From: Candidatus Latescibacterota bacterium
Lineage (GTDB): Bacteria > Krumholzibacteriota > Krumholzibacteriia > WVZY01 > JAKEHA01
Reading direction: 5' to 3'
Length of the DNA: 64,000 nucleotides
NCBI GenBank assembly: GCA_963707635.1
Contig: OY970173.1
Location: 2,560,001-2,624,000, forward strand
The stretch's first letter is position 1, and every line of letters begins with the position of its first letter. Below, piece by piece: positions 1-14,430 of the stretch. Position numbers and translations under genes: made by a program. The notes beneath the pieces are model-generated. The model was not told the origin of the DNA. It was given only the letters and a program-made list of their open reading frames with translations, and did no database searches.

Positions 1-1124
1 GACGCCACCACGTCTTCGTCGGGCCTCTCCGCCACCGTGACGTCGAGCTTGCGCTCCACACCCTCCCGGACGACCGTCACCGGCACGGTCTTGCCCACGG
101 GGGTACCGGCGACCATTAGACGGAACTTGCTGTCGTCCATTACCTGCTCGCCGTTGAAGCGCACAATTACGTCGCCGCGCTGAAAACCGGCCTTGGCCGC
201 CGGCGTCTCGGGCTGCACCTGCTGGACCAGGATCCCGTGCTCGACGCTGAGCCCCATGCCCTGGGCCAGCGTCTTGTCCAGTTCCTGGAGCTGGATCCCG
301 AGGTACCCGTAGCGCACCCGGCCGCGCGCGATCAGCTCGCCCATGATGGATTTCGCCATGTTGATCGGAATCGCAAAGCCGATCCCCTGGCCCGACGGAT
401 TGATCGCGGTGTTGATCCCAATCGCTTCGCCCTTCATGTTGACCAGCGGGCCGCCGCTGTTACCGAAGTTGATGGACGCGTCGGTCTGAAGGTAGTTCTG
501 GTACGTCGCATCGCCGCCGATGATGTTGAGGTCGTTGCGCCCCTTCGCGCTCACGATGCCGACGGTGACCGTGCCCTGCAGCTGCCCGAACGGCGTTCCG
601 ATCGCCATCACCCAGTCGCCGACCCGCATCGCGTCCGAGTCGCCCAGCGCCACCTTCGGCAACCCTCGCTTGGCGTCGATCTGAATCACGGCGATGTCGG
701 TGTGTCGGTCGAATCCGACCACCCGCGCGTCGAATTCCTCTTCGCTGTCGTCGCGCTCCATGACCACCGTGATCTTCTCCGCGTCGCGGATGACGTGGTA
801 GTTGGTGAGCACGCGCCCTTCGTCGTCGAAAATGAAGCCCGAGCCGCCGCCGGGCATGCGCCGGCTGTGCTGGCGCTGCGGGTCGTCGGGGAAAAACTCC
901 TTGAAGAACTCGAACGGCGTCTGGCCTTCCTGGTCTCGATCGGTGTCCACCGTGCGCTCCGTGCGGATGAAGACCACCGCCGGACCGACCTTCTCCGCCA
1001 CGTCGGCGAACACGGAGCTACCGTCGGCCCGAATGGGCGCTCCCCGGGCAGCCTCCGGCGGCGCCGCGGCAGCCGATGCCACCATGCAACCGAGCAACAC
1101 ACCAGCAGCAATGAACCTGGCCAT
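1..1124 (-). CDS. degP: DegP/HtrA (Do-family) periplasmic serine protease with PDZ domain; 3' end runs off the window
   Basis: Not in the ORF track because it is open at the edge. Manual minus-strand translation gives a signal peptide (MARFIAAGVLLGCMVASAAA), VLTNYHV (catalytic His) and QTDASINFGNSGGPLVN (catalytic Ser, ~440-490). The start could be an in-frame GTG slightly upstream. Confidence 0.9.
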   Translation of the reverse strand, partial: MARFIAAGVLLGCMVASAAAAPPEAARGAPIRADGSSVFADVAEKVGPAVVFIRTERTVDTDRDQEGQTPFEFFKEFFPDDPQRQHSRRMPGGGSGFIFDDEGRVLTNYHVIRDAEKITVVMERDDSEEEFDARVVGFDRHTDIAVIQIDAKRGLPKVALGDSDAMRVGDWVMAIGTPFGQLQGTVTVGIVSAKGRNDLNIIGGDATYQNYLQTDASINFGNSGGPLVNMKGEAIGINTAINPSGQGIGFAIPINMAKSIMGELIARGRVRYGYLGIQLQELDKTLAQGMGLSVEHGILVQQVQPETPAAKAGFQRGDVIVRFNGEQVMDDSKFRLMVAGTPVGKTVPVTVVREGVERKLDVTVAERPDEDVVA

Positions 1125-1504
1125 TTTCAGGGACGATGTCACCCTTATCACCCTCACGACGACGGCTGAGACCCGCTTCGGCGAGTCGCCGTCAAATTGA
1201 CGCATAATGAGTTCCAACTATCGGCCGGCGCCTTGCGCCGACCGCTGGAAGGGGAGCAGGGGGGCAGTGGAGTTGAGTGCACTCTCGACCAGTGCACCAC
1301 AGAGTGTAGCCCGGAATACCCGGACCGTCAATGCGCCATTCGCCCCCGGCGCGCCCGGCTTGCCAGATACAGGTGGTTGTACGCGGCGGCGAGCTCCGGG
1401 TTCCTCCCCGTAAAGTGCCGGAACCAAATAGCTTGTGCACATTGGTGTTTCCGGGGATACTTGCCCGGACCCGGTCGACCGGCTTTCCGAGGAAGGAGCA
1501 GCTC

Positions 1505-3189: not shown

Positions 3190-6100
3190 CTACCGCCTGA
3201 TCGCGAACGGCTTGACGACCGAGCCGCTCCCGCTGTCCGATTCGATGCGAATCCGCAGAATATACACGCCGCTCTTGAGCGTGTGGACGTCGATGGCTTC
3301 GTCCAGCGGCATGTTCACGACGCCGTTCGGGTTGACGTCGAACGACTCCGACACCGCCTCCTGCCCCTCGATCGTGTACACGGAGACGACCGCGGTCGCC
3401 CTGGCGTTGGTCGTGATCCGCGCGTGGACGACGTCGCCGGTGACGGGGTTCGGATATATGATAAACGATTCCGGGTCGAACGTGCTCGACGCGGGTGCAA
3501 CCGCGGACGCGAGTGTCACGCGCCCGCTCCGCGTGAGATCCGCGCGCGCCATGGTCCAGTACTCCACCTGCGGAGCGCCGGCAACCGACTGGATCGACAG
3601 CGCGGTCTCCGGGCTCACGTCGAGCGTGTCCGTCACCACGTCGATGCCGCGCAGGCGGCCGGGGGACCCGAGCACGACCAGGCGCCGCGCTCCGGCGGAC
3701 GTCTCCGCCAGCGTGGGAGCGCCGCCCGCTTCCGCAGGACCCACGCGGGGGAATCCGGCGATGGCGCCGCCGGCGGCGCCGAACGCCGCCAGAGTTCCAT
3801 CGTCGAGCGGAAACAGAACGTCCGCCACCCCGTCTCCGTCGATGTCCGTCACCAGCGGGCTCTCGTTCGAACGCGCCGACGCGAGCGGGGGTTGGTCGCC
3901 CGCCGATTCCGGCCGGATGACCCGCGGCCACTCGATCACGGGCCGCACGTTCGCCTTGAGAAGATACAGGTACTGGTCGTCCCAGATGGCGATCTCCAGC
4001 GTGCCGTCACCGTCGACGTCGCCGAGCGCGGGAGCCGACGGGTGCGGCGCGCGCAGGCGCCCGTCCGCGCGCGTGACGGGTCCCGAGAACGCGGAGGAAA
4101 ACTCGAACGCGAGCACGCCGCCGTCGGGCAGCGCGACGACGATCTCGTCGTCATCGTCGCCGTCCATGTCGCCGACCGCCGGCGCCGTCGGCACGAAGCT
4201 CGCCGGGTCGTAGCCGGCGGGAACGACGATGTCCTCTTCCCACGCGCGCGGTGCCCCCGGCGCGGCGCCGGAGACCGAGAACGGAACCCACGCCACGCGA
4301 ACCCGGGCGGCCAGGGTGTCGACGCACGCGAGCACGACCCCGCGCGTATGCGCCGCACCGTCGCTCACCTCGGCGATCGCCAGCGGAGCCGCGATCGCGC
4401 CCGCCGTCGAATACGGCCACATGCCCGCGACCGACGGCGTCGCCGGATTCACCACGGCGCCGCTCGCGTCCACGAAGCGCACCCGGAGGTTCGTCCCGTC
4501 GTGCTCCACGATCGCCACTTCGGGGGCACCCCCGTTTACATCGACCAGAATCGGCGGCGCCGCCATCGGCAATCCATGGAACAGAATGCCGGTGGTCGCC
4601 GGGTTCGCGTCGCCGTCGACGAGCTCGCTGCCGTTCGACTTCCACGCAAAGACGTCGCCGCCGGATCCCGACGCCACCAATTCGACGCCCGCGGCTCCGT
4701 CCAGGTCGGCGAAGGCGGGGGCACCCGCCCACGAAACGCCCGGCACCGCGATGAACGGCGCGATCGTGGCGGGGTTGCTGTCGGGGTCGTTCCACTCCAC
4801 ACCGCCGGGCGTGAACACATAGACACCCGCGTCGTCGGAGAGGGCGACGATCTCGGCGGTGCCGGATGCGTCGAGGTCCACCACCGTGGGCGGCTGCGCG
4901 GGCGACGACGCGCCCCAGCGCGCGCGCGCCTCCTGGTAGGCCACGTCGCGCCGGACCACGACGGTCATCGCCGGCCCCGGTGCGGAGAGGGTTTCGATCA
5001 CGATGCCCGTCGCCGCGCCCGAATTCGACCGCGAGGACGGTTTCGTGTCGGGGCCGAAGAGCGTGCGAGCATCATTCGCGGCGCGATACGAATCGAAGAA
5101 ACTGCCCAGCGCGAACAACGCGGGCCCGCCCCGGTCGAGATCCTGCACGCCGTCCGCTTCCTCCAGGTCGACTCCTTTGCGGGCGACGTAGTCGTCCGGG
5201 AGATACCCCTGACCGACGGCGTCGCGAACGACCGCCTCGTCGATGTGCCAGATGTAAATGCCGCTTCCCGTCTGGCGACGGGTCACCTTGAATCCGTAGT
5301 CCGGATCGTACCGTTCCGATGCGGGGTTGGTGAGATCGGTGAGAAAGAAATCGAACTCAGCGCCTTCCAGCGACTCGTCGTTGGCCGGAATGAGGTTGCT
5401 GTCCGCGTCGCCGAACGTGAACAGGCTGTCGAAATTCGCGTCGTGGACGCGATTGGCCACGAGGTAATACTCGTTCTCCGTGATCGGCACGCGGAGACAG
5501 ACGGTGTCCGCGGGACCGCCGGTATTGATGTCGGCGAGCGAGATCGTCGCGGGAGCGGCGCTCGCATCGACGAGGACGGGATCGATCCACCCCGCGATGA
5601 GCCGGTTGAACTCGCACGGGAACGCGGGCACGAACCCGTTGACGTTGAACAGCCCGTACGCCATCAGGCAGAAGCTCCCGACTCCCTGGGAATCCGCCGC
5701 GCCGGCGGGAGTGGAATCGAACATCGGGAGCAGGCCGATCCGATTCCCCAGCTCGAACGCCCACACGCCGAGGGTGCCGACGGTGTAGTAGTCCTGGGAT
5801 GCATCCGAGGGCACGACGGAGAAATTGTCGACGAAGAAGGGGGATCCGCCGGCCACGTCGTTAGTCGCGAGCCCGGGGTCGCCCGGGTCGTCCAGCGCCG
5901 ACTGGATGTCCGACTGATCGTAGAAACTCGACCAGATCTGATTGGGCGAGTCGCCGGCGATGTCGGTCTCCTGCCCGGCGCCGGCGTGGATGATGAAGAC
6001 GTGATCGTACGCGGCGAAGTCGACGGAGTCATCCGCGAGGTCGATGACCTCCTGCGCAAGCTCGACGACGCGATCATCTTCGGTTGCGTCCGCACCGTAG

Positions 6101-6549
6101 TAGGACATGCGATGCGGCAACGAATAGAGCGTGTCGGGGAGCGTCCAGCGAACGGTCAGGCGACCGCGCGACGCGCCCCGGTAGTACTGCTCGAGGTGCT
6201 GCAACTCGTTTCCGAACCACGTGGAGTCGCGGGGTGTCCGCGTGCTGCCCGGCTGCCCACCCATCAACGTGTCGACAAACTGCACCTGAAAGGCGATCAG
6301 GCGTACCGTGTCGAGCGAGGCGACCGCACCGGCGCTGAAGCGGCTCACCCGGTCGCGCTGGTAGCGGTTGAGGCCGCTGGACGCCGGCGGGGACAGGGCC
6401 GAAACCGAAGCCTGACCCTTGTCCCCCGGGACCCGGTACGCCGGGGCCCGCCTGCCTGCCTGCGCGCTCGAGGCGCACACGAGCCACGCGAGAGCGAGGA
6501 GCGTCGGGAACGCGAACCCGCGAGACGAACGACGGATGCTTAGCTTCAA
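3190..6549 (-). CDS. Secreted M6 (immune inhibitor A)-like domain + FG-GAP beta-propeller + T9SS-type CTD; zinc-binding motif degenerate
   Basis: IIHAGAGQE, FCLMAYG, EYYLVANR and SGIYIWHIDE are M6-family motifs; DxDGDG repeats; IYPNPV...SGVYILRI CTD. FELGN stands where HExxH is expected. Confidence 0.8.
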   Translation of the reverse strand: MKLSIRRSSRGFAFPTLLALAWLVCASSAQAGRRAPAYRVPGDKGQASVSALSPPASSGLNRYQRDRVSRFSAGAVASLDTVRLIAFQVQFVDTLMGGQPGSTRTPRDSTWFGNELQHLEQYYRGASRGRLTVRWTLPDTLYSLPHRMSYYGADATEDDRVVELAQEVIDLADDSVDFAAYDHVFIIHAGAGQETDIAGDSPNQIWSSFYDQSDIQSALDDPGDPGLATNDVAGGSPFFVDNFSVVPSDASQDYYTVGTLGVWAFELGNRIGLLPMFDSTPAGAADSQGVGSFCLMAYGLFNVNGFVPAFPCEFNRLIAGWIDPVLVDASAAPATISLADINTGGPADTVCLRVPITENEYYLVANRVHDANFDSLFTFGDADSNLIPANDESLEGAEFDFFLTDLTNPASERYDPDYGFKVTRRQTGSGIYIWHIDEAVVRDAVGQGYLPDDYVARKGVDLEEADGVQDLDRGGPALFALGSFFDSYRAANDARTLFGPDTKPSSRSNSGAATGIVIETLSAPGPAMTVVVRRDVAYQEARARWGASSPAQPPTVVDLDASGTAEIVALSDDAGVYVFTPGGVEWNDPDSNPATIAPFIAVPGVSWAGAPAFADLDGAAGVELVASGSGGDVFAWKSNGSELVDGDANPATTGILFHGLPMAAPPILVDVNGGAPEVAIVEHDGTNLRVRFVDASGAVVNPATPSVAGMWPYSTAGAIAAPLAIAEVSDGAAHTRGVVLACVDTLAARVRVAWVPFSVSGAAPGAPRAWEEDIVVPAGYDPASFVPTAPAVGDMDGDDDDEIVVALPDGGVLAFEFSSAFSGPVTRADGRLRAPHPSAPALGDVDGDGTLEIAIWDDQYLYLLKANVRPVIEWPRVIRPESAGDQPPLASARSNESPLVTDIDGDGVADVLFPLDDGTLAAFGAAGGAIAGFPRVGPAEAGGAPTLAETSAGARRLVVLGSPGRLRGIDVVTDTLDVSPETALSIQSVAGAPQVEYWTMARADLTRSGRVTLASAVAPASSTFDPESFIIYPNPVTGDVVHARITTNARATAVVSVYTIEGQEAVSESFDVNPNGVVNMPLDEAIDVHTLKSGVYILRIRIESDSGSGSVVKPFAIRR

Positions 6550-6797: not shown

Positions 6798-7883
6798 CTA
6801 CTGGGCCTGACGGACTTTCTTCCTGGCTCCCTTCTCATTCGAGCCTTTTTCAAGCGAGCCTTTTTCAAGCGAGCCCTTCTCGGGCGAGCCTGACTTCTCT
6901 CCACCGGCCTGTGCGATCTTCTCGCTCCGTAGCGGCGACACCGCGTGCGATCGCGAATGTTCGATGGGAGCGCGCGACATAGCACCCGTCGCGCGTGTGT
7001 CCTTCGCGCGCAGGCCGCTCTCCGACGCTCGCGTGCGACTGGTCGAAACGACGCGCACGGGAGTGACGGTGTGTGATTCTCTCGATTCCTTGAACGTCGT
7101 CCGCCTGGCGACCATCGGCTCGGCGGCGCGCCCGGGCTGGACGCGGCCCGTCAGATGCGCACCCGCCGCGTACTCGCGCTTGAACTTCGCCGGCCGAATC
7201 GCCTCGTACGGAGCAGCAGCGTGCGCGCGATACGACGCGTACACGTCGTCGCACAGCCGGCAGCCTCCGCCGACGCGCACGTGGAAGCCGGGGCCTCCGA
7301 CGCACAGGTACGAGGGGTAGCGGACCCACTCGCGAACATAGAACCTCGCGTAGCCCACGCCCACGCAGTCCCACCGGCACGAAGCGGGCAGCAACGAGAC
7401 GTAGAAGTCGCGGCACGCGACGAACGGGTCCCCGGTGATTCGATATCCGAATCCGCCCAGGAAGACGCTCTCGCCGTAGGGTGAGTAGTCGAACGGCACC
7501 GGGCTTCCGACGCCGAACACGTAGGCGATCCCGCAGCCGTCGAGACGATCGAGACCGAGGTCGCAGGCGCGGTAGCAATAGGTGGCGCCGCCCCGCACCC
7601 AGCCGTCGTCGCAGGCAGCGCTCGGATTGAGCACGTGGATGAATCCGGCGGTGTCGACGAGCCACAGCGACGTGTAGCAGTCGCGTTCCGCGCGCAGCCA
7701 CACCGTGACATCGCCGTAATCGTTGAACACGTCGCCGCCCTCGACCCACACGTTCACACCCGCGTAGCCGGACACCGTGAACGGGGTTCCGTGCCTGGCC
7801 TCTCCGGCCGGCGCGAACCAAAGGACCACCGCCACCGTGAGCGCGGCGCATGCCAGTGTCTTATGCAGAGTCGTGTGTTTCAC
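6798..7883 (-). CDS. Secreted Cys-rich protein (DUF4384-like N-terminal domain) with basic low-complexity tail
   Basis: Signal peptide; V.VW.EGGDVF...V.VWLRAERDCY...VDTAGFIHVL pattern; GTG start overlaps the upstream TGA; AGGAGG RBS. Confidence 0.7.
   Translation of the reverse strand: MKHTTLHKTLACAALTVAVVLWFAPAGEARHGTPFTVSGYAGVNVWVEGGDVFNDYGDVTVWLRAERDCYTSLWLVDTAGFIHVLNPSAACDDGWVRGGATYCYRACDLGLDRLDGCGIAYVFGVGSPVPFDYSPYGESVFLGGFGYRITGDPFVACRDFYVSLLPASCRWDCVGVGYARFYVREWVRYPSYLCVGGPGFHVRVGGGCRLCDDVYASYRAHAAAPYEAIRPAKFKREYAAGAHLTGRVQPGRAAEPMVARRTTFKESRESHTVTPVRVVSTSRTRASESGLRAKDTRATGAMSRAPIEHSRSHAVSPLRSEKIAQAGGEKSGSPEKGSLEKGSLEKGSNEKGARKKVRQAQ
6841..6900 (-). repeat. 15-bp coding tandem repeat (EKGSL units)
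   Basis: gagcctttttcaagc twice exactly (6841-6870), then two degenerate copies. Confidence 0.8.
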
Positions 7884-8725
7884 TGCAGAGTACCTCCTAC
7901 CGGGAGCAGCTCGGGGTTGTTCGGCACCGCCTGGTACGCCCAGTCGAGCGTGACCGTGTTGGCGCCAAAGTTCCGCACAAAGAATTTCGCCCAGTTGGAT
8001 TCACCCTGGCCGTTGACAATACGAACGATGTAGCTGTGATCGACGATGGCCTCCACCGATCCCGAAGGCGCCCAGCCCGTGTCCGGCGCCCAGTCCACGC
8101 TCACGAGGTCGATCACGCCGTAATCCTGGATATCTACTCCGGCCCGCGCGCGGCGTATGTAATTCACTCCGCCCGTGGACTCGAAGTAGATATCCGTGGT
8201 GCTTACATTCCACGCCTGTGATTGGCCCGACAGACTCGAGAAGTCGTAGCCGGCGTGTAACGCGTCTTGCCCCAGTCCGAACAGCACCAAATTGAAACCT
8301 TCCGGCCGCGGAGTGTCGAATACCAGCTCCGGGCTCAGTTCGCTCTCGTTGCCCGCCCGATCGTAGGCGGTAACGGCGTAGAACCATGTCTCGCCGTTGA
8401 CGACGTCCGTGTCGTCGAATGAAGTCTGATTGGAGGGAACGTCTTCGAGGAGGAAGTACGGACCCGGCTCGGTGGTCGAGCGGTACACGCCGTACCCCGC
8501 CAGGTCCGTCTCCAGATTCGCGTTCCAGAAAATACTGACGACGCCGTCACCGGTGACGCTGAAGACCCCGTCGGGTGGAAATGGAGGAGTGTCCACCACC
8601 GCGACGGGGCCTTCATCTTCACATCCAGCAACGAAGGGAAGAGTCAGCGCAGCGACCGCGGCGACGGCACCCGACAGCCTGGCGACGCGATCGATTGGGT
8701 TTCTTGTGCGCAGGTGAAGCGTCAT
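7880..8725 (-). CDS. Lipoprotein with fibronectin type III domain
   Basis: Lipobox VAGC; W.AN.E.DLAGY.VYRS...FYAVTAYDRAGNES FN3 motif. Confidence 0.85.
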   Translation of the reverse strand: MTLHLRTRNPIDRVARLSGAVAAVAALTLPFVAGCEDEGPVAVVDTPPFPPDGVFSVTGDGVVSIFWNANLETDLAGYGVYRSTTEPGPYFLLEDVPSNQTSFDDTDVVNGETWFYAVTAYDRAGNESELSPELVFDTPRPEGFNLVLFGLGQDALHAGYDFSSLSGQSQAWNVSTTDIYFESTGGVNYIRRARAGVDIQDYGVIDLVSVDWAPDTGWAPSGSVEAIVDHSYIVRIVNGQGESNWAKFFVRNFGANTVTLDWAYQAVPNNPELLPVGGTLQ

Positions 8726-8742
8726 GTCGAGGATTCCCTAGC

Positions 8743-8757
8743 GCAAGCCACGTGCCA
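8743..8757 (-). promoter_or_regulatory. Sigma-54 (-24/-12) promoter of the lipoprotein/DUF4384-like operon
   Basis: Minus strand reads TGGCAC-GTGGC-TTGC, an exact TGGCAC-N5-TTGC match; predicted TSS ~8731. Confidence 0.8.
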
Positions 8758-9000: not shown

Positions 9001-9271
9001 CAAAAACACCGACGCCCCGATCCGTTCCTGTTGTTAACGTCGAGACCCCACCTCTCGAAATCAACTTACAACGCAAAGCCAGCAGCTTGCTCGGAACGTA
9101 TTCAGGGCGTCGGTTAGAGTTCGTCGCCGTGAGGCTTCGAATCTGCTTCGGTCGAGAGAGACTCCTTCGGTTTCTGTACCCTCTAGTTCAGGATTCTTGG
9201 GGAACTTGCGTTCCCCAAGAATCCATCCCCACCAGATTGGAAGTTCATTTACGCACGGGATGACTTCCGGG
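9001..9271 (-). ncRNA. Candidate sigma-54-dependent structured small RNA (~270 nt)
   Basis: Starts ~12 nt after a consensus -24/-12 promoter; contiguous hairpins including a perfect 15-bp stem with GCAA tetraloop; ends in a 13-bp long-range stem followed by GUUUUUG. Confidence 0.75.
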
Positions 9272-9282
9272 GATGTACCAAG

Positions 9283-9298
9283 GCAACGGCTGTGCCAA
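9283..9298 (-). promoter_or_regulatory. Sigma-54 (-24/-12) promoter of the candidate sRNA
   Basis: Minus strand reads TTGGCAC-AGCCG-TTGC, exact consensus, directly downstream of a sigma-54 activator gene. Confidence 0.85.
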
Positions 9299-9488: not shown

Positions 9489-9555
9489 AGCCGGCTATTA
9501 AAAAGTTTTATAGTAGAGAGGGGTGACCCGTCGCATGGGGTGCGACGGGAGCCGG

Positions 9556-12612
<3,057 letters not shown>

Positions 12613-12672
12613 CGATTCCCTCGAGCTAGTGGACTATCGTGTTTCAGCAACGGATCGCCGGGCAGAGGCCGC

Positions 12673-12948
12673 CTAGCGCATCCAGATCATGTACTTCCAC
12701 CACATCCCCACGAGGATCATCACGCGGTCGACACGCTGACCCGGTGCCAGACGTTCTTCGACCGTCACCTTGCCACTGCCGCCGCTGCCCATTCCGGACA
12801 ACCCGTCCGCGTCCCCTTGGTTGGAGCCGCCACCGCGGCCGGTGCCAACGGGCGTGGGAGCTGCATAACAGGAAGAGACATCCGGAAAGAGGGCGGAAGG
12901 CGACACGAGTGCCGCGATCATGAGGAGGACTATCGCCGCCCGTTTCAT
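12673..12948 (-). CDS. Small secreted protein / candidate signalling propeptide (91 aa)
   Basis: Strong RBS (GAGGAAGGAGAAGG); signal peptide MKRAAIVLLMIAALVSPSA; Gly-rich core with NQGDADG; Trp-rich hydrophobic C-terminus. Confidence 0.75.
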   Translation of the reverse strand: MKRAAIVLLMIAALVSPSALFPDVSSCYAAPTPVGTGRGGGSNQGDADGLSGMGSGGSGKVTVEERLAPGQRVDRVMILVGMWWKYMIWMR

Positions 12949-13044
12949 ACGTGACCTTCTCCTTCCTCTACAAGAGGATACGCGCGTTCTGGCGCCCGGC
13001 TTTAATTCTTACTAAATATATTCTTGCAGGTCATCCGCCGTCAA

Positions 13045-14430
<1,386 letters not shown>

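Follow-up and report, generated by a model that had tools for sequence, protein, structure and literature searches.

We describe a new family of sigma-54-type small RNAs, encoded behind the gene of a TPR-containing sigma-54 activator in Candidatus Krumholzibacteriota, and on comparative grounds we consider it probable that this RNA pairs both with codons 3-6 of the activator mRNA, as a negative feedback, and with the leader of degP. In the proposed circuit the activator would switch on the RNA via the sigma-54 promoter of the latter; the exposed loop near the RNA 5' end (9260-9251) would pair with the activator mRNA and block its translation, closing a negative feedback loop; and a second segment would pair with the degP leader at its 5' end and tune the output of DegP, an envelope-repair protease, with a sign that could go either way. 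Loops that are already folded would initiate the pairing, without help from Hfq. Coordinates refer to the window, i.e. the whole stretch of 64,000 nucleotides analysed, taken from a single-contig genome that is 96% complete (hereafter, the source genome); the nine sampled families of this uncultured phylum are denoted f1 to f9.

The RNA, its promoter and its spread

The locus comprises the following elements:
9002..9271, minus strand: structured sRNA of about 270 nt, its start predicted from promoter spacing
9283..9298, minus strand: sigma-54 -24/-12 promoter, conserved in homologues (rpoN is present in the genome)
9239..9268, minus strand: 5' hairpin P1, with seed 1 (9260-9251) in its loop, from the homologue alignment and the predicted fold
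9226..9237, minus strand: G-rich linker with a second GGUGGGG, conserved in f1 and f2
9191..9224, minus strand: 15-bp hairpin P2, with compensatory changes at several pairs
9150..9158, minus strand: seed 2, whose complement stands at the 5' end of the degP leader
9008..9114, minus strand: 3' multibranch domain (module A) with a covarying closing helix
9090-9073, minus strand: hairpin X of module A
9052-9046, minus strand: loop GGUGGGG of hairpin Y of module A (loop Y)
9006-9002, minus strand: U tract after module A

Most of the anatomy that a sequence-only reading had assigned to this RNA was recovered. The promoter TTGGCAC-AGCCG-TTGC lies at 9298-9283, and its consensus is retained in 30 of 30 full-length homologues; the first hairpin (9268-9239), the 13-bp helix 9114-9102/9020-9008 with the CGUUCC/GGAACG and UCGAGA/UCUCGA helices, and the GUUUUUG ending at 9001 are all present on the minus strand. 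The perfect 15-bp stem at 9224-9191 is there as well, but the GCAA loop that was thought to cap it varies among relatives, and a domain described as closed by UAGAG/CUCUA is missing from the minimum free energy (MFE) structure and is not conserved among relatives. The stretch of about 271 nt has an MFE of -115.8 kcal/mol (z = -5.5), and none of 200 shuffles was equally stable. No short terminator hairpin was called at the U tract, which is instead preceded by a long-range helix. The P1 loop, UCCCGUGC, is invariant in all 30 full-length homologues, and RNAalifold suggests a pseudoknot between it and the linker, involving columns that barely vary. The linker itself is a possible extra seed for C-rich leader stretches, although the signal for such pairing is weak. 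Just 3' of the U tract, a C-rich stretch (8980-8935, minus strand), the conservation of which is not obvious among the relatives viewed, holds an exact complement of loop Y, with which a transcript that continues this far could mask its own seed.

A genome search returned a single copy of the RNA in the source genome, and no paralogues were found there. BLAST detected it in 31 of 40 relatives, all from the same order (families f1 and f2), and in none of five genomes from other orders, with the edges of the matches coinciding with the promoter at one end and the U tract at the other. The sequence of the 5-nt promoter spacer varies across the 30 homologues, all of which keep the sigma-54 consensus, and the distance from the promoter to a conserved GGAAG is 13-14 nt in 29 of them and 17 nt in one. 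In the closing helix of the 3' domain, 8 of 12 pairs change on both sides and 97.7% of cells are paired; the observed covariation was reached by none of 500 shuffles, a test that rests on 23 aligned sequences of the 30 and treats non-independent kin. Since the consensus is kept around a varying spacer, the BLAST matches end where the unit is predicted to end, and the helix covaries, we regard both promoter and fold as more than a chance pattern. Conservation of promoter and structure among relatives, which the sequence-only reading had named as a check on its proposal, is thus found in the 30 promoters and in the covarying 3' helix.

The comparison with Rfam yielded no match (best E 1, to FsrA, at 19.7 versus 80 bits) and nothing relevant in 12 homologous loci. 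tmRNA, SRP and RNase P, hallmarks of which had been reported absent from this stretch, are each encoded elsewhere in the source genome, as is 6S RNA. Metatranscriptome contigs cover the sRNA in five of eight runs of relatives (in runs X5, X6 and X8 it is not covered by contigs). The lack of an Rfam match, the presence of the housekeeping RNAs elsewhere, the conservation of promoter and structure, and the RNA contigs together support the earlier proposal of a new sRNA family. In four studies the contigs end at 9241-9259, and no contig extends into the promoter. Because contigs reveal neither the strand nor the amount of a transcript, these ends point only weakly to its 5' terminus. The contig of one relative extends about 60 nt beyond the U tract. 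In the literature searched (supplementary tables of RNA-motif surveys were outside its scope) we found no published account of this RNA, nor any description of riboregulation in the phylum.

Syntenic versions of the sRNA occur in all nine sampled families of Ca. Krumholzibacteriota. A walk along the gene order showed the end of the activator gene in 53 of 66 distant stretches; all 53 carry a sigma-54-like site (relaxed pattern), and in 45 the loop is exactly GGUGGGGU, with a stem that changes from lineage to lineage. The model of the 3' domain gives weak full-length matches in f5, f8 and f9 (best E 0.00065), and the 5' portions of the RNA are wholly different between families. In a set from f4 and f6 fetched later, 19 of 20 loci were analysable and all 19 have the promoter and a GUGGGG RNA. 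A second module, with a GGCGAGA loop, is found in f3, f4 and f7, apparently within the same unit as the sigma-54 RNA, and in f5, f8 and f9, behind a separate sigma-70-like promoter; it was not found in the source genome. Two f2 loci (L029, L030) and the f5, f8 and f9 loci carry a second structured RNA 50-350 nt 3' of the sigma-54 RNA, mostly with a sigma-70-like promoter to itself and with GGCGAGA and AUCCCCUCC loops; its C-rich loop could, judging from complementarity, pair with Shine-Dalgarno (SD) sequences or with loop Y. Exact 19-mer matches under other GTDB labels (L039, L050, L060) and two 17-mer matches in viral contigs, which lack the rest of the RNA, are chance. L052, a further exact 19-mer match, is a genuine complete locus with a frameshifted activator on an Actinomycetota-labelled contig, which is probably misbinned.

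Complementarity to the activator mRNA and to the degP leader

The elements concerned in the activator gene are:
9556..12612, minus strand: activator of 1018 aa with TPR, sigma-54 AAA+ and Fis-type HTH regions (Pfam)
12596..12605, minus strand: target site 1, activator codons 3-6, exact complement of seed 1
12619..12633, minus strand: second candidate site, over the ribosome-binding region, with a complement in loop Y and the 5' strand of its stem

The activator gene has one full-length copy in the source genome and is present in 30 of 30 genomes queried. Target site 1 occurs in 21/21 activators of f1 and f2 and in 0/40 others, and the seed occurs in the same 21 RNAs (start codons were hand-picked in six loci, namely five of f3 and L010, the last placed via the site itself). 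All 21 activators have GCA as codon 4 and CGG as codon 5, even though the usage of these codons in the genome is 5% and 25%; among 59 conserved 4/6-fold columns, only these two show no synonymous variation (20 sequences, L010 being left out for its frameshift). Freezing at rare synonyms implies that the constraint acts on the RNA sequence and not on the protein. Seed 1 is predicted to be readily available, with 9 of 10 positions unpaired at probabilities of 0.72-0.99 and an opening cost of 0.3 kcal/mol; opening site 1 in the mRNA would cost 5.9 kcal/mol. The complement of the seed-1 9-mer occurs in one of the 2691 called initiation regions of the source genome, and in the ranking by energy the activator is 21st of 2691 for seed 1 and 295th for loop Y, with the reservation that these gene calls are crude and the degP start is among those miscalled. 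The motif at 12619..12633 is present in 9/13 f1, 17/18 f3 and 0/8 f2 loci; its stricter form occurs in 6 of the 2691 genes of the source genome, where the pairing energy is weak.

In other families the seeds and sites are different. In f5 and f8 the 5' part of the RNA has GGUAUCGG facing CCGAUGCC, which spans the start codon (16/16 loci, 0/45 others); in f9, 10 bp cover the activator SD (one locus); in f3, f7 and f4 the loop GGCGAG faces CUCGCC before the SD (22/23, and 0/38 others). The later f4 and f6 set has a complement directly before the SD in 18 of 19 analysable loci (backgrounds 18 and 62 of 2691), three of these pairings, from f6 genus g21, having been recognised after the fact; the remaining locus, from f4, lacks it. 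The 5' ends of the f3, f4 and f7 RNAs paired with their own activators no better than with other activators. In a family-level permutation of the first 50 nt only, 21 of 40320 arrangements were as good as the observed one; this and the other permutation counts given here overstate significance, because kin are not independent. All activator sites fall within the ribosome footprint or the "five codon window", and base pairing in that zone blocks initiation, as described in excerpts of PMC9486967, so repression of the activator is likely. From conservation, complementarity, co-variation and codon fixation, all of them observed, we infer binding and repression. The swaps of seed and site between coding region, start codon, SD and the region upstream of the SD would then be a rare record of the rewiring of an sRNA and its target in which the circuit persists.

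Pairing with the start regions of the upstream small ORF or of the downstream lipoprotein gene (see below) is unsupported, with ranks from 128 to 2083 of 2691, and the rho leader was discarded as a candidate for loop Y, since only 4 of 28 genomes, all f1, have the complement there. Within the small ORF of four relatives, 11 nt are complementary to the 3' strand of P1; the source genome lacks this match.

The second predicted target lies at the edge of the window:
1..1205, minus strand: degP/htrA gene, which runs off the window; the start codon at 1205 is uncertain
1282..1290, minus strand: target site 2, loop of the first degP-leader hairpin, complementary to seed 2
1331-1303, minus strand: sigma-70-like promoter of degP, just before target site 2
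1270-1244, minus strand: C-rich stretch in the degP leader

DegP was identified by TIGR02037 above the cut-off at C1:2559706-2561010 of the source genome, 8 kb downstream of the sRNA. In genus g1, seed 2 matches the degP leader at +4 to +16 over 9-11 bp in 5/5 pairs; other genera of f1 and f2 have a different middle segment of the RNA with matching changes in the leader (up to 14 bp), and in f3 and f7 the leader complements are 5' motifs of the RNA. For 23 cognate pairs of RNA and degP leader from f1, f2, f3 and f7, the longest perfect complement averaged 10.35 nt, compared to 8.03 nt in permuted pairs (0/20000 permutations); for f1 and f2 the count was 2/20000, and 411/20000 without genus g1. 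Three cognate pairs reach just 7-8 nt, and the 9-bp match of the source genome, taken alone, is equalled by 287 of 2691 upstream windows. Loop Y gives a weak signal, with CCCAC in 12 of the 23 leaders versus a background of 10.6% and a median quantile of 0.21. Three f2 loci (L295, L299, L304) have GCACGG(G)A in the degP leader, 16-66 nt ahead of the start; as this sequence is complementary to seed 1, the latter may also act on degP in that family.

As target site 2 is distant from the degP start codon, the effect on degP, which we infer from the matches, could be of either sign; one form that it could take is protection. RoxS of Bacillus subtilis pairs near the extreme 5' end of the yflS mRNA and blocks RNase J1 (abstract of PMC5419742), and the match to the degP leader would likewise lie near the extreme 5' end of the mRNA. 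Unlike in that system, no RNase J was found above the cut-off in the source genome, which has RNase E/G instead. This is consistent with 5'-end protection, and by analogy we lean slightly towards a role of the sRNA in shielding the degP mRNA from RNase E/G.

The activator that fires the promoter, and other explanations

The neighbourhood includes:
9495..9513, no strand assigned: candidate upstream activating sequence, the recurrent palindrome TRTAAA-N5-TTTAYA
12673..12948, minus strand: small ORF of 91 aa with a hydrophobic N-terminus, an invariant GD and a near-invariant GDxD core
13015..13044, minus strand: sigma-70-like promoter before the small ORF and the activator, by consensus match only
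13045..14430, minus strand: NtrC-type response regulator, the rival activator
7880..8757, minus strand: gene of a putative lipoprotein, fibronectin-III-like, with a separate sigma-54 promoter (8757-8743)

The palindrome, 214 nt before the sRNA promoter, recurs in 58 of 61 loci, compared to 5-14 in 20 shuffles; it is found near 3 of 76 promoter-like sites of the source genome, and with 1 mismatch only at the sRNA promoter. Because of this recurrence and near-uniqueness it is likely to be the enhancer. A weaker copy accompanies another sigma-54-like promoter at C1:538507 (plus strand) of the source genome, a possible second regulon member. A second palindrome before the lipoprotein promoter (52/60 loci versus 34-43 shuffled) was found by a test that is too loose.

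That the sRNA is the output of the TPR/sigma-54 activator is likely, and only likely because the NtrC-type regulator next door is equally conserved. If the NtrC-type protein fired the promoter, the sRNA would be a cross-talk repressor of the TPR activator, with no feedback loop. This we consider improbable, though it is the strongest of the alternatives: the NtrC-type gene is adjacent in 59 of 61 loci, its orthologues stand near the activator in most f4 and f6 genomes queried (a presence/absence comparison shows that both activators are kept in these two families), and, as there are two sigma-54 promoters downstream, either assignment is possible. The lipoprotein gene has a sigma-54 promoter in most families, and in f6 it lies elsewhere and has none (7/7 checked), but the RNA remains directly behind the TPR gene (10/10 analysable), an arrangement that speaks for the TPR protein. 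The NtrC gene of f4 stands at a greater distance, and the precedent of LuxO and Qrr (excerpts of PMC3262071) points the same way, although none of these arguments is decisive. Four f6 loci (L323, L324, L326, L329) have a shorter activator frame (869 or 534 aa), which suggests a split gene.

A second alternative, less probable still, is that the sRNA works mainly as a protein-binding sponge or scaffold via repeated GGYGRG loops, e.g. for an RRM protein, with pairing secondary. Loop Y does occur on many different stems across the phylum, the related GGCGAGA loop recurs, four RRM proteins are encoded in the source genome, and loop Y is invariant in f2, f5 and f7, whose activator leaders lack its complement and thus offer it no clear partner. 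However, both loops have position-fixed complements in the activator leaders of several families, and a sponge would leave the synonymous codons of the activator unfixed; protein binding may coexist with pairing. The known sponges are also poor models. CrcZ, near CbrB, and GlmY, near QseF, sigma-54 RNAs that titrate proteins, had been invoked as parallels by the sequence-only reading, and the resemblance holds for the position of a sigma-54 RNA near its activator. It fails for the mode of action, since the present RNA has no Rfam match and no Hfq was found, and the conserved mRNA complements point to pairing in place of protein titration; of the suggested analogies only Qrr/LuxO, with pairing to the activator's own mRNA, fits. 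Neither the predicted mRNA targets nor the exported-looking small protein encoded before the activator figured in that reading. A CsrB/RsmYZ-type sponge is likewise not indicated, as the loops are GGUGGGG, UCCCGUGC and UGCUG in place of repeated GGA, and neither CsrA nor ProQ was found in the source genome. Hfq was found in none of 26 genomes (the source and 25 others), by a search whose control was positive in 5 of 14. Judged by its complements, the RNA behaves like one that acts by base pairing.

It is very unlikely that the pairing unfolds a leader hairpin in which the SD is buried and so activates the TPR activator in a positive feedback. The predicted fold of the f3 leader pairs CCCRCC with the GGGG SD in many loci and places the RNA target bases in or beside the hairpin loop, as such a mechanism would have it; but in the source lineage the main site is within the coding region (codons 3-6), and in f5, f8 and f9 it covers the start codon or the SD, where pairing blocks initiation.

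Hardly credible is the notion that the stretch is a cis element or a small-peptide gene of the lipoprotein operon and that the complementarities are chance: a 21-codon ORF starts inside P1 in 16/16 genus-g1 copies and one RNA contig reads beyond the U tract, but 7 of the 16 have a frameshift or read-through in the ORF and the other 14 homologues lack it (we therefore rejected it as a conserved peptide), the lipoprotein gene is served by a separate sigma-54 promoter and lies apart from the RNA in f6, and the lineage-specific swaps of seed and site argue against chance.

Relation to known regulatory systems

The closest parallel to the negative feedback that we favour is Qrr. The qrr promoters are sigma-54-dependent. 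According to excerpts of PMC3262071, Qrr RNAs are activated by LuxO and repress LuxO production, which constitutes negative feedback, and use distinct pairing regions for distinct targets. The present RNA resembles them in the position of its sigma-54 promoter beside the gene of an enhancer-binding protein, in its conserved complementarity to the translation-initiation region of the activator, and in the predicted use of separate segments for separate targets. It differs in having no sequence or Rfam similarity to Qrr, in being about 270 nt long, multibranched and single-copy, in lacking a detectable Hfq, and in that its seeds differ between families; the activator has TPR repeats and no receiver domain, unlike LuxO. 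The LuxO-Qrr design would have been reached independently without Hfq, via pre-folded loops, by a new sRNA family whose two predicted targets are supported by comparative genomics and natural compensatory changes.

In its architecture the RNA is reminiscent of RNAIII, the effector of the peptide-sensing agr system of Staphylococcus aureus, which excerpts of PMC4152353 describe as a long multi-hairpin RNA, Hfq-independent, that initiates by loop-loop contacts and uses two sites on one mRNA. Here, too, we find a long multi-hairpin RNA with predicted loop pairing and two candidate sites on one mRNA. There is no Rfam match or conserved encoded ORF that would place it in the RNAIII family; its loops are G-rich and its sites C-rich, whereas the loops of the RNAIII type are C-rich; and the host is a diderm with sigma-54 and a TPR activator in place of AgrC/AgrA, in which peptide sensing is hypothetical. 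The same source argues that in RNAIII a pre-folded scaffold stands in for the chaperone, and by analogy the large scaffold described here may do so as well.

In 59 of 61 loci a motif script placed the small GDxD ORF immediately before the activator gene; the ORF has no Pfam or NCBIfam match. With a hydrophobic N-terminus, which we judged by eye to be signal-peptide-like, its product is a candidate for an exported pro-peptide. RRNPP systems, as outlined in excerpts of PMC10075063, combine a small pro-peptide gene with an adjacent gene for a TPR-containing cytoplasmic receptor of about 250-500 aa, and the adjacency of a small exported-looking protein gene and a TPR regulator gene is shared. The receptor here, at 1018 aa, is twice the RRNPP size and has a sigma-54 AAA+ output, and the host is a double-membrane non-Firmicute. 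It is tempting to speculate, though we hold this wider scheme to be distinctly doubtful, that the GDxD pro-peptide is exported, processed (possibly by DegP), re-enters and binds the TPR-sigma-54 activator, which would drive an RNAIII-like, multi-loop RNA that acts without Hfq, silencing the activator and adjusting degP across the phylum, with seeds replaced by lineage on a fixed scaffold. Were the small protein indeed the precursor of a pheromone, the circuit would represent a diderm system in which intracellular peptide sensing is coupled to sigma-54. A structure prediction that combined the TPR region and the 37 central residues of the small protein (score 0.01, mark 0.32) has no bearing either way. 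The protein carries a tryptophan-rich hydrophobic C-terminal helix in f1, f2, f3 and f7; the helix is missing in f5, f8 and f9.

As to the genes downstream, the lipoprotein is present in 192 of 208 genomes of the phylum and has look-alikes in Poribacteria, WOR-3 and Ignavibacteriota. Its gene (7880-8725) is followed by one for a 361-aa protein without a family match (6798-7883, minus strand). Between the sRNA and degP, 3190-6549 (minus strand) encodes an M6-like metalloprotease that has FG-GAP repeats and, at the C-terminus, a T9SS-type sorting domain; this enzyme is a candidate for the processing of the small GDxD protein.
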